Assembly: GCA_964019425.1 (NCBI GenBank)
Contig: OZ025782.1
Span: 1,426,001-1,490,000 of the forward strand
Direction of reading: 5' to 3'
Length of the DNA: 64,000 nucleotides
DNA from: Flectonema sp. DT1601
Lineage: Eukaryota
Shown here piece by piece: positions 32,600 through 34,484 of this stretch (its first letter is position 1; every line of letters begins with the position of its first letter). Position numbers and translations under genes: made by a program. The notes under the pieces are model-generated. The model was not told where the DNA came from. It saw only the letters and a list, made by a program, of their open reading frames with translations, and did no database searches.

Positions 32600-34484
32600 T
32601 TAGTTCTTCTTAACCTCAGAGGTACATGGAGAGTTCTTCAACAAGCACTGGTTGGTTCCTCTCTTAACTCTGATGTATCCAGACTCTCCCCAACTTGGTC
32701 CCCAAGAGTTCTTGATCACCCAGTAGTCAGCACCGTATCCAACAATGAGCACTCCGTGGTCGAGTTGTCTGGACTCACAGTTTGACATCACACCTCCAGA
32801 GTATGTCTGCCATGAAGTGGCGTCAACGGCGATCGAGAGAGGTCCGTTGGTTGAAACCCAAGTGGCCATCTCGTCCTCATCGTGGGCGATGTCCTTGTGT
32901 CCGTCGATGGTGGCACCGACAGTCTTGCTGGCGACATCGTGACAGATTCCACTGATTCCTTCTCCACTTGTGTATGGGTAGGATTCCTCAGTCACAATCT
33001 GTCCCTTGTGGGCGGACAACAACCATTCAAAAGCACTGTCCATTAGGCCTCCATTACATCCTTATAAATGTATTTTCTAGTGCCAAGTAAAAGATATGGC
33101 AATAAACGGATACCGTCCCCCAGGCCGTTCCAGTGGAGCACCAGGTTGGCACAGTCGGAGGATGCGGTCCAGGTAGGTTAAGGTGGCTACCACACCCAAA
33201 AGTCCACAGCAGAGTAACAAAGTCGTGCTCGGGCCGTAAAGGCTAGCGGTACGTGTTTTCGCCCGCGACAAGCCGTGTGATTACGGTACAGGACGGGGTC
33301 AACCGCACTTAACAGTCGGATTCCATTGGTACAATCAGGAAGATACCCCTACTCGCATGGAGGAGCAAGCCCCTAAGGAGATATGTGTTTTTCACAACAT
33401 GACAACACAATTAACAAGAATACAGCACGGGCGTGAGGAAAAGCCGTAACATGGAAAGTAGGAATAAAAATTAAAAGGTGTGAGGAAGGGTTTCATTCTC
33501 CACACTTAATGTGAAGGTGTACCAAGGATTACGCGCATGGGTTAACCGACACGTGATGAAACCAACGGGCTGGGGAGACAACAAGGGACGGAGCCGAAAA
33601 CGGCACCCCCCGAAGGGGCACGCCACAAAAGAAAATAAAAACCCGGGTGATCTTGTAAGGCTCCAGATCTATAAAGTTCCGGGCCGGTTCACCCCCTCTG
33701 GCAGTATGTCGTTGCTGTCGCCTGTTGGTCGTTAGACCGAAGGAGCTACCGGGAAAATAAAAAGGAAAGTAACAGTCAAAACTTCGAGAGGTGACGCTCC
33801 GACCGCGCCCCGAGTTATACCAGAAAACAAAATAAAGGAAAAAGTTAAACGGGATGCCAGGTTTTGTGCACCTTTTCACCCCCAGTTGGGGGTTACCCCT
33901 ACATCCCACAGTAGGTAAGGCCCAAACACGCGGTCCTGGCCCCCGCGGAATGTTAGGCCTCCATTACATCCTGAGTCGGTTTTGTCACAACTCACCAACT
34001 CCTGCTCTGAAAGGGAAGTGAGCTTGTTTCCTGCAAGCTTCCACTGACCTTCAATTCCTCCGGTGGTGGAGAAGGCCCAGCAAGATCCACACTGCTTCTG
34101 GTTCTTCACCTGGGTCACCGCTCCCTTTGCTCTCCAGTCGACCGAATCAGCAGCGGCCTTGACCTCGTCGGCAGAGAACTGCTTGGCTGGGCTGGCCTTG
34201 GTTGGAACGTTCAGGTTGTGGTAGGTCTTGAACTCCTCAGCGCTCAGGTCAGAGTACACGTTCATTCCGAACGATGCCTCAGGGTTCTGGGCTTCCTGGT
34301 CAGCTCCCTTCATCAAGTTGGCCTTGAAGATTGACCTTCTCTTGATCTCATCAGCTCCAGAGTACTTCTTTCCGTAGGTACTCTTGAAGTTGTTCCACAA
34401 CAACATCTCGTTCTCCTCAATGTACTGAACTGGGAGAGCTGATGAGGCGGCGGCCATGGCGAGAACAGCGCATGCGGTCTTCAT
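32600..34484 (-). CDS. Cathepsin L-like (papain family C1A) cysteine protease, 324 aa once the 910-nt interruption is removed
   Basis: Signal peptide, I29-like prodomain, [24 protein letters not shown] (catalytic Cys), [29 protein letters not shown] (His), WVIKNSWG (Asn). 1885-910=975 nt, which stays in frame. Confidence 0.92.
33043..33972. mobile_element. 890-bp insertion (33063-33952) flanked by a perfect 20-bp duplication, inside the cathepsin coding sequence
   Basis: ttaggcctccattacatcct at 33043-33062 and 33953-33972. Insert has no recognisable coding capacity and many GC-rich hairpins. Confidence 0.8.

Follow-up and report, generated by a model that had tools for sequence, protein, structure and literature searches.

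A short insertion element recurs at one fixed site in cathepsin L-like genes of the diplonemid Flectonema sp. DT1601: a candidate site-specific retroposon

To our knowledge, nearly all transposons with strict target specificity insert into RNA genes, repeats or other transposons, and fixed-site insertion in a protein-coding family has been seen chiefly in trypanosomes, at the hot spot of the RHS genes. The target duplication is 12 bp long for ingi, a fixed 14 bp for R1 and 49 bp for SLACS, and R1/R2 types are not known to carry a 3′ poly(A) or simple-repeat tail. Elements specific to rDNA and to spliced-leader (SL) genes share a safe-haven strategy. As described in a study of trypanosome RHS genes, a LINE (ingi) and its short partner RIME insert into these genes at a fixed hot spot, and many members of the family are pseudogenes, with two halves placed around a retroelement (PMC7563717). 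For the diplonemid D. papillatum, another report lists about 2500 gene models with retroelement-protein annotations, among them LINE-1 ORFs, SLACS-like reverse transcriptases and R2/jockey-type elements (PMC10161547). Non-GT-AG intron ends are also known in Euglenozoa, according to two further papers (PMC12621601, PMC6221363).

The window, i.e. the whole 64,000-nt stretch of Flectonema sp. DT1601 DNA that was analysed (contig OZ025782.1), looks like diplonemid (Euglenozoa) DNA and contains a cathepsin L-like gene encoded on the minus strand and split into two halves. The N-half (33876..34484) starts with the ATG at 34484, encodes a signal peptide, the I29 propeptide and the catalytic cysteine, reaches the GCNGGL motif at 33954 and then continues for 25 codons into inserted sequence, up to the stop codon at 33876-33878. 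The C-half (32600..33061, minus strand) has a reading frame from 33061 to 32603, followed by the stop codon at 32600-32602, and comprises the region of the catalytic His and Asn. Pfam searches assigned Inhibitor_I29 and positions 2-70 of 220 of Peptidase_C1 to the N-half, and positions 65-217 of 220 of the latter family to the C-half. The catalytic motifs are kept across both halves (QCGSCWAF for Cys, LDHGV for His, and NSWG). The description of an otherwise intact cathepsin in the initial annotation stands, as does the restored 324-aa protease, obtained as a single ORF when 910 nt were deleted in silico. A 402-nt contig of run X1 spans 32251-32648 with 2 differences, and the covered region 32251..32599 (minus strand) is probably the 3′ UTR of this gene or of a near-identical intact paralogue; no contig matched 32000-32247.

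The interrupting element, designated S (33063..33952), is 890 bp long, has 50.8% G+C and no long ORF, and is assumed to lie on the minus strand by analogy with a longer, in-frame element described below. It is flanked by an exact 20-bp direct repeat on the minus strand. The upstream (gene-sense) copy (33953..33972) encodes the end of the ...SGCNGGL stretch and closes the N-half, and the downstream copy (33043..33062) is followed by GCNGGL and the C-half. An in-frame TAA just before the downstream repeat is made up of the last two bases of S and the first A of the repeat. As the first reading had proposed, the duplication is perfect: the window contains two copies of the 20-mer and no more, with 0 mismatches between them (0.00 copies expected from 100 shuffles), and no other long direct repeat lies within 32900-34100. 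The gene-sense end of S (...CATTTATA) abuts the repeat directly, with no poly(A) or simple-repeat tail of the kind typical of many LINE and SINE families. Terminal inverted repeats, which characterize TIR DNA transposons and MITEs, are absent from S, none of the 5 inverted pairs listed being terminal.

A blastn search of S against the window returned only the self-match, the right-end 21-mer of S had 0 matches in metagenome contigs and an internal 23-mer 0 matches in viral contigs, and exact look-up of 8 ORFs (S-derived, junction-spanning or half-gene) found none in the protein collection. A scan of 32500-34600 on both strands against 4227 Rfam families (cmscan) gave 0 matches at E<=1, and a search by eye for an HDV-like fold at the 5′ end of S produced nothing convincing; described catalytic RNAs thus have no match in S, which leaves room for an undescribed ribozyme. 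The insert had been called structured, a label that did not survive comparison with shuffled sequences. For the whole insert, the fold z-score was -2.06 in gene sense and +0.13 for the opposite strand (20 shuffles each), and eleven 150-nt sense windows of S ranged from -1.33 to +0.77 (200 shuffles each), i.e. without excess stability.

Other cathepsin genes carry S at the same site. In a sample of 201 cathepsin-like proteins (ORF-level translations from long public contigs), four (P0122, P0131, P0223 and P0140) end with GCNGGL and the identical 25-residue read-through into S, a count in which one locus may appear twice, as the source contigs may belong to different assemblies or haplotypes. 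These proteins represent three N-half types (100, 81 and 64% identical to that of the window), P0131 being present on 2 contigs, and the matching C-halves (P0130, P0132, P0133 and P0139) begin at the first Met past the site, on contigs of matching size. A fourth paralogue, B, is represented by an S-bearing contig in each of the runs X1 and X2, which come from two studies; the part of S identical to the window covers 33063-33376 in X1 and 33063-33133 in X2. S is therefore found at a fixed nucleotide of a multicopy target, and the proposal of a non-autonomous element aimed at cysteine-protease genes gains support, since four or more cathepsin paralogues carry the ORF-less S after one and the same codon. 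Both junctions and the duplication were observed in the window copy, and each of the other S copies was observed at one junction. The upstream junction of S is identical in all four ORF records, which is atypical of LINE-driven copies, as these are often 5′-truncated. An origin of the insert as a kinetoplast-like minicircle or from mitochondrial DNA was also considered and provisionally dropped, because exact-ended copies of S recur at a single nuclear site.

Paralogue B also bears on how S came to be shared. The exon next to S in this gene differs from the window at 19 positions over 93 nt (ungapped; about 80% identical), whereas S itself is 100% identical over 314 nt (X1), with the exon divergence starting 3 nt from the boundary. 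Spread of S by gene conversion or shared ancestry is unlikely, because neither would stop 3 nt from the boundary of the element. An explanation by descent would have S present in one ancestral cathepsin, spread by duplication and gene conversion, and precisely lost from many copies. The family is indeed large and partly homogenised, with 100% identical N-halves in five records: P0004 (intact), P0131 and P0223 (both with S), and P0005 and P0179 (both with the longer element). Nevertheless, the identical read-through tail occurs in genes that are only 64% identical, and close intact relatives exist for each S-carrier type and would require repeated exact losses. Together with the abrupt boundary in paralogue B, this makes inheritance by descent highly improbable. 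That the insert was put into the gene by the assembler has a practically negligible probability. The two junctions of the window copy do rest on the assembly and not on raw reads; against an artefact, the S-exon junction is bridged in paralogue B by contigs of two independent studies, and the other junction by ORFs on contigs of four different sizes.

Empty sites were also recovered. Intact near-identical cathepsin copies exist as DNA, and in one contig of X1 position 33042 is joined to 33953 with 20 letters in common; the 20-mer is thus present once at the empty site. For the window copy, the target duplication is matched by a single-copy empty site. The identity of the N-halves among intact copies and those with S or the longer element, together with the presence of an empty window-type gene in X1, points to recent activity.

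It had also been suggested that S possibly acts as a mobile intron. This would mean that S is precisely removed from the pre-mRNA, either by the spliceosome (GC-AG or GA-AG) or by a non-spliceosomal route like that of the nonconventional introns of euglenids and hemistasiids, and that the hit genes are functional. Removal of 910 nt restores the frame, and both cathepsin halves are intact, as they would also be after a recent insertion. There are 21 possible registers for a 910-nt excision, none of which is GT-AG (0/21); a GC-AG register (33958-33049) and a GA-AG register (33970-33061) exist exactly where they had been placed. The GC-AG register reads AG/GCCTAA...TGGAG/ (slashes mark the boundaries) and lacks both signals of the local introns, which read G/GTATG...A/C-rich tract...CAG. 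With 910 nt, the insert is also about 10 times longer than the neighbouring introns. Boundaries of GT-AG or GC-AG type with local signals, as expected of a U2-type intron or introner, are therefore lacking in S. Introners and nonconventional introns resemble S in that a target duplication around the insert leaves the excision boundary ambiguous, but S differs from them in its lack of splice signals, its unpaired ends and its 10-fold greater length. The ends of S do not pair with each other as those of nonconventional introns do; the minimum-energy fold has the 5′ end paired with nearby sequence, within about 104 nt.

The taxonomic background points both ways. A study of diplonemid introns reports that noncanonical introns are abundant in hemistasiids, and that more than 97% of the introns of Diplonemidae species are canonical, with the same pattern as the local introns (PMC12621601). 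At the RNA level, the comparison used assembled contigs of X1 and X2 and not reads. The S-bearing contigs come from runs that appear RNA-like, which suggests that S is transcribed with the exon. The joined, window-like contig of X1 might be taken for a spliced product; however, it carries the change at 32960 of the uninterrupted paralogue P0001, known from DNA contigs, while the window gene encodes E and not D at this position. The contig thus represents an empty paralogue and is not proof of splicing. Moreover, the base of paralogue B at 33010 is present in one of three X1 contigs, the S-bearing one, so no S-less form of B was seen. The data leave room for some removal of S from RNA; a mobile intron as such is distinctly unlikely, and S likely disrupts the genes it enters instead of serving as an intron.

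A second, longer insert (L), known here from ORF translations alone, occupies the same nucleotide as S and contains an ORF of about 735 aa, which is in frame with the cathepsin after GCNGGL. This ORF is present in three proteins (P0005, P0179 and P0180) of two paralogue types. A third insert type was also found at the GCNGGL site. There is no detectable similarity between S and the L ORF, and longer fused forms of this ORF were searched for and not found. The L ORF matched no Pfam family at E<=1, had no PDB sequence match of note and no usable ESM Atlas match, and an alignment-based scan of metagenome contigs gave 141 pattern matches, 0 of which were confirmed. The C-terminal part was modelled with a mean pLDDT of 86.4, and Foldseek placed tandem-RRM proteins at the top (raver1 RRM1-3, E 1.7e-3); in structural comparisons with VIA, single RRMs gave Z 7.8 and rmsd 2.8 over 70 aligned residues, a Z below 8 that may reflect just a common fold. 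The predicted product looks like a coiled coil with RRM-like domains, resembling LINE ORF1 proteins. Two distant relatives, P0270 and P0254, share the domain (BLASTP E 1e-13 and 8e-9) and show weak matches to Exo_endo_phos (APE endonuclease) after it. Among 30 L-like proteins, this family was matched in two (E 4.7e-4 and 2.6e-3, both under the Pfam cut-off), and a reverse transcriptase (RVT) match in none (0/30). A protein-coding element at the nucleotide of S is thus present, but the polymerase expected of an autonomous partner was not seen in this set.

An alternative that draws on these observations is DNA-level, site-specific integration of both S and L, by a recombinase, by a homing endonuclease with repair, or by short-homology recombination of a circular 910-bp form, with the 20-mer as an att-like core. 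The duplications known for eukaryotic cut-and-paste transposons are shorter than 20 bp, a size typical of att cores. Such integration would suit the exact and invariant ends of S, the missing poly(A), the lack of RT in the 30 L-like proteins and the use of one site by three unrelated insert types. On the other hand, no recombinase or transposase was found, S has no terminal inverted repeats, a circle or tandem joint of S was present in 0/4 runs (contigs only), and the modelled L ORF resembles LINE ORF1. The downstream 20-mer of paralogue B, the copy covered by the X1 and X2 contigs (none extends over 33937-33972 at the upstream junction), is, in addition, that gene's own version, with 4 differences from the window (33046, 33047, 33056 and 33059), all synonymous, which fits a target duplication. 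On balance, DNA-level integration seems rather unlikely.

The explanation that we favour, and regard as fairly probable, is that S is a site-specific, non-autonomous retroposon that duplicates 20 bp of its target and finds a safe haven in the multicopy cathepsin genes. S likely arrived by retrotransposition (target-primed reverse transcription), helped by L at the same site. An endonuclease would cut the two strands 20 bp apart, with the antisense nick at the upstream edge of the 20-mer and the sense nick at its downstream edge. Transcribed together with the host gene as part of a one-directional gene cluster, and probably extending into cathepsin sequence, the RNA of S would anneal to the nicked target and be reverse-transcribed; annealing of such a cathepsin-extended RNA is proposed to account for the exactness of the junctions, the lack of poly(A) and the fact that 4/20 mismatches are tolerated. 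Gap repair would then yield the 20-bp duplication, and the hit copy would become a pseudogene consisting of the N-half and 25 codons, followed by a stop. The cost would be small, as dozens of intact paralogues remain.

The initial annotation had likened S to CRE/SLACS and R2 elements. The comparison is apt in kind, but ingi/RIME in the RHS genes (PMC7563717) is the closer analogue. Both cases concern Euglenozoa and, on the reading of S and L favoured here, a LINE with a short, non-autonomous partner at one fixed coding site of a large gene family, a likeness of arrangement. In trypanosomes the 5′ part of RHS is hit, whereas the insertions described here lie in the stretch of cathepsin L that encodes GCNGG. 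S, moreover, lacks poly(A) and is flanked by a duplication of 20 bp, and L is read in the frame set by the start of the host gene. With R1/R2, the cathepsin inserts share a strict single site in a multicopy gene, probable co-transcription with the host, the lack of poly(A) and precise junctions, but the target of the former is rDNA and not a protein-coding gene, and S has no Rfam match to an HDV-like 5′ ribozyme. CRE1/2, SLACS and CZAR are likewise euglenozoan, site-specific in a multicopy gene and flanked by long target duplications; they differ in their target, a small RNA (spliced-leader) gene, and in their restriction-like endonuclease, in place of which only a weak APE-type hint was obtained here. 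A bolder combination of these elements can be drawn, which we consider very unlikely. S would be a transposon-born, non-spliceosomal intron caught at birth, homing to cathepsin GCNGG codons, riding the polycistronic transcript and precisely cut out via its 20-nt terminal repeats, with the hit genes functional, and its partner L would represent a euglenozoan retroelement lineage not described before, with translation in frame from the start codon of the host.

The cathepsin site looks like a second, independent-looking case of fixed-site insertion in a protein-coding family, found in diplonemids, a sister lineage that is among the most abundant marine protists. No published diplonemid case was found in a search conducted mostly outside subscription journals. 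A sequence-specific integration with a 20-bp stagger would be of interest for targeted insertion tools. S targets the part of a protease family whose nucleotides are most conserved, and the finding bears on the safe havens of selfish elements in gene-dense, polycistronically transcribed genomes and on the annotation of cathepsin copy numbers and pseudogenes in diplonemid genomes. Because L continues the reading frame of the host gene, the finding may also bear on how an element devoid of its own promoter and start codon is expressed.

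All large ORFs of the window (at least 12) lie on the minus strand, including those for an MTR4-type helicase, a protein kinase, a cNMP-binding protein, a CPSF100-like C-terminus and a giant VWA protein, and such one-directional gene clusters are typical of Euglenozoa. The closest named relatives of the cathepsin encoded here are Diplonema papillatum proteins (60–64% identity). Candidate introns, recognized by their pattern (52392–52477, 62806–62879, 42497–42611 and 42318–42395, all on the minus strand; 74–115 nt), start with GTATG and have an A/C-rich, not pyrimidine-rich, tract before the terminal CAG. 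According to PMC12621601, Diplonemidae species have the same intron pattern, and over 97% of their introns are canonical. On the basis of gene orientation, cathepsin relatives and intron pattern, the window is treated here as presumed nuclear DNA from a diplonemid whose genes, as in trypanosomes, are clustered in one direction. The giant VWA gene (2–31786, minus strand) is intronless: its single reading frame stays open without a break for 10,595 codons or more, runs off the window start and includes at least nine stretches of von Willebrand factor A type (scanning of two 5000-aa halves gave 3 and 6). Other long minus-strand ORFs (39124–42339, 43256–48052, 48432–49763, 50905–54022 and 34979–35659; 226–1598 codons) matched no Pfam family at E ≤ 1e-5.

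The minus-strand cathepsin gene is interrupted by an 890-bp insert (S, 33063–33952), placed between two copies of a 20-mer (33043–33062 and 33953–33972). The 20-mer occurs nowhere else in the window, its two copies show 0 mismatches, and no other long direct repeat lies near the insertion site; no such pair appeared in 100 dinucleotide shuffles. The N-half, starting with the ATG at 34484, encodes a signal peptide, an I29 propeptide, the catalytic-Cys motif and the terminal ...DSGCNGGL, after which its frame runs 25 codons into S and stops. The cathepsin frame picks up again at 33061 and ends at 32603, Peptidase_C1 positions 2–70 being found in the N-half and 65–217 in the C-half (Pfam). The perfect duplication described in the initial annotation was thus recovered, and in silico deletion of 910 nt restored a 324-aa protease ORF, as it had proposed. 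None of the 21 possible 910-nt excision registers is of the GT-AG type, again as claimed, and the GA-AG (33970–33061) and GC-AG (33958–33049) registers are present as given there. The only part of that description to fail was the word "structured": the fold z-score of the whole S was −2.06 on the gene-sense strand and +0.13 on the other (just 20 shuffles), 150-nt sense windows (n = 11, 200 shuffles each) ranged from −1.33 to +0.77, and Rfam gave 0 matches at E ≤ 1 on both strands of the S region. The longest ORF of S does not exceed 144 codons (stop-to-stop), the insert lacks poly(A), and the 64-kb window holds no second copy. Terminal inverted repeats were looked for in S and are absent; site-specific integration at the DNA level is considered an unlikely origin.

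S was also found in public sequencing runs. In X1 and X2, which come from two separate studies, one contig each carries S identical to that of the window (33063–33376 and 33063–33133, respectively), and the adjoining exon shows 19 differences over 93 nt with no gap. Four of these (33046, 33047, 33056 and 33059), all synonymous, fall inside the 20-mer, and the loose end past this exon stretch encodes a different cathepsin (paralogue B). Additional S contigs in both runs showed 0 differences. That the insert is an artefact of assembly is scarcely credible. A 204-nt contig of the marine metatranscriptome X4 covers 33141–33342 of S with two differences and one inserted base, so environmental RNA libraries contain S or something closely related to it.

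Protein records, i.e. ORF-caller translations of long ENA contigs in which ORFs run straight across junctions, gave a similar picture. GCNGGL (the codons directly upstream of the insertion site) followed by the window's exact 25-residue read-through of S ends 4 of the 201 fetched cathepsin-like proteins, whose contigs may represent several assemblies or haplotypes. These are P0122 (the window's own cathepsin type), P0131 and P0223 (a 439-aa paralogue type with an 81% identical N-half; P0131 on two contigs) and P0140 (a distant paralogue, 64%). The C-halves P0130, P0132, P0133 and P0139, which take the first Met downstream of the site as their start, lie on equal-sized contigs. Intact cathepsin ORFs are present on DNA contigs (P0001, P0121 and P0123), P0001 differing from the window's restored protein by 2 residues. 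As read from these sequences, at least four diverged cathepsins carry S at the identical nucleotide, with both junctions seen for the window copy only and one junction for each other copy, and the copies of S resemble one another far more closely than the host genes do. Repeated precise insertion is thereby favoured over inheritance by descent or gene conversion, a reading held to be highly improbable.

A 414-nt X1 contig joins 33042 to 33953, with 20 letters shared. Since it bears the change 32960 T>G (E→D) of the intact paralogue P0001, it needs no excision. The unoccupied site has a single 20-mer copy, the classical signature of a target-site duplication. The mobile intron suggested initially, for which the contig might have been splicing evidence, therefore loses this support, the joint being a paralogue-type empty site, and this reading is regarded as improbable. 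A second joint skipping 910 nt comes from a diverged paralogue that is intact. One cathepsin contig of X2 reaches a depth of 25,000 versus 5–8 for the others, and neither run covers 34480–35700 or 32000–32247 (one X1 contig ends at 32251); from this depth and coverage pattern we infer that X1 and X2 are RNA-like. The only S junction covered in either run is the downstream one, and at 33010 the base of paralogue B occurs in one of three X1 contigs, the one with S.

The same nucleotide is occupied by a second, longer insert (L), whose ORF of ~735 aa follows GCNGGL in frame in P0005 and P0179 (439-aa type) and P0180 (distant type). N-halves are 100% identical among P0004 (intact), P0131 and P0223 (with S) and P0005 and P0179 (with L); therefore, occupancy varies among near-identical gene copies. 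In another paralogue, P0125 (475-kb contig), GCNGGL is followed by a third, different read-through of 13 residues and a stop. An L-ORF fragment starting from an internal Met (P0178) lies on a contig of equal size.

No Pfam family matches the L ORF, and it has no detectable similarity to S. Its C-terminal part is predicted (mean pLDDT 86.4) to form tandem ferredoxin/RRM-like domains, downstream of a long coiled-coil-like stretch recognized by sequence. Tandem-RRM proteins ranked top in Foldseek (E 1.7e-3), and comparison with single RRMs (VIA) gave a middling score (Z 7.8, rmsd 2.8, 70 aligned residues). An exhaustive phmmer search revealed 54 relatives at E ≤ 1e-3, of which the distant P0270 (E 1e-13) and P0254 (E 8e-9) align over 240–300 residues. 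After the shared region P0254 has an OTU match (Pfam, 3.1e-6) and P0270 just a weak PDB hint of OTU, and both have weak APE-endonuclease matches; reverse transcriptase matches were found in 0 of 30 L-family members. A second gene family shows the L ORF as well, joined in frame to the initial ~36 residues of its proteins (P0176, P0177, P0181 and P0182, four records from one 178-kb contig, compared with P0239, P0248 and P0238). In P0226, a relative with 37% identity, the preceding sequence is a BspA-like LRR fragment. As these fusions hint, the L lineage may rely on the start codons of its hosts in several multicopy genes.

These cathepsin-site elements resemble R1/R2 and CRE/SLACS in kind. The nearest known parallel is in trypanosomes, where ingi (a LINE) and its short partner RIME have an insertion hot spot within the RHS multigene family (PMC7563717). 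For D. papillatum, PMC10161547 reports ~2500 gene models of retroelements, SLACS-, R2- and LINE-1-like ones among them. Searches of the accessible literature turned up no account of a diplonemid element that targets cathepsin genes.

The best-supported reading, which we hold to be reasonably probable, is a site-specific retroelement (retroposon) system. In it, L would be LINE-like and encode an ORF1-type protein. The non-coding S would be either a deletion derivative or an element mobilized in trans, and both L and S would be transcribed along with the host gene. A nick in the antisense strand at the 20-mer's upstream edge would let RNA that continues into cathepsin sequence anneal there and prime reverse transcription, and a sense-strand nick 20 bp downstream followed by repair would yield the duplication. 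Such a mechanism would account for the exact ends and missing poly(A), for insertion into a target despite changes at 4 of its 20 positions, and for the choice of the most conserved stretch in a family of dozens of members. A cathepsin copy hit by S most likely becomes a pseudogene.
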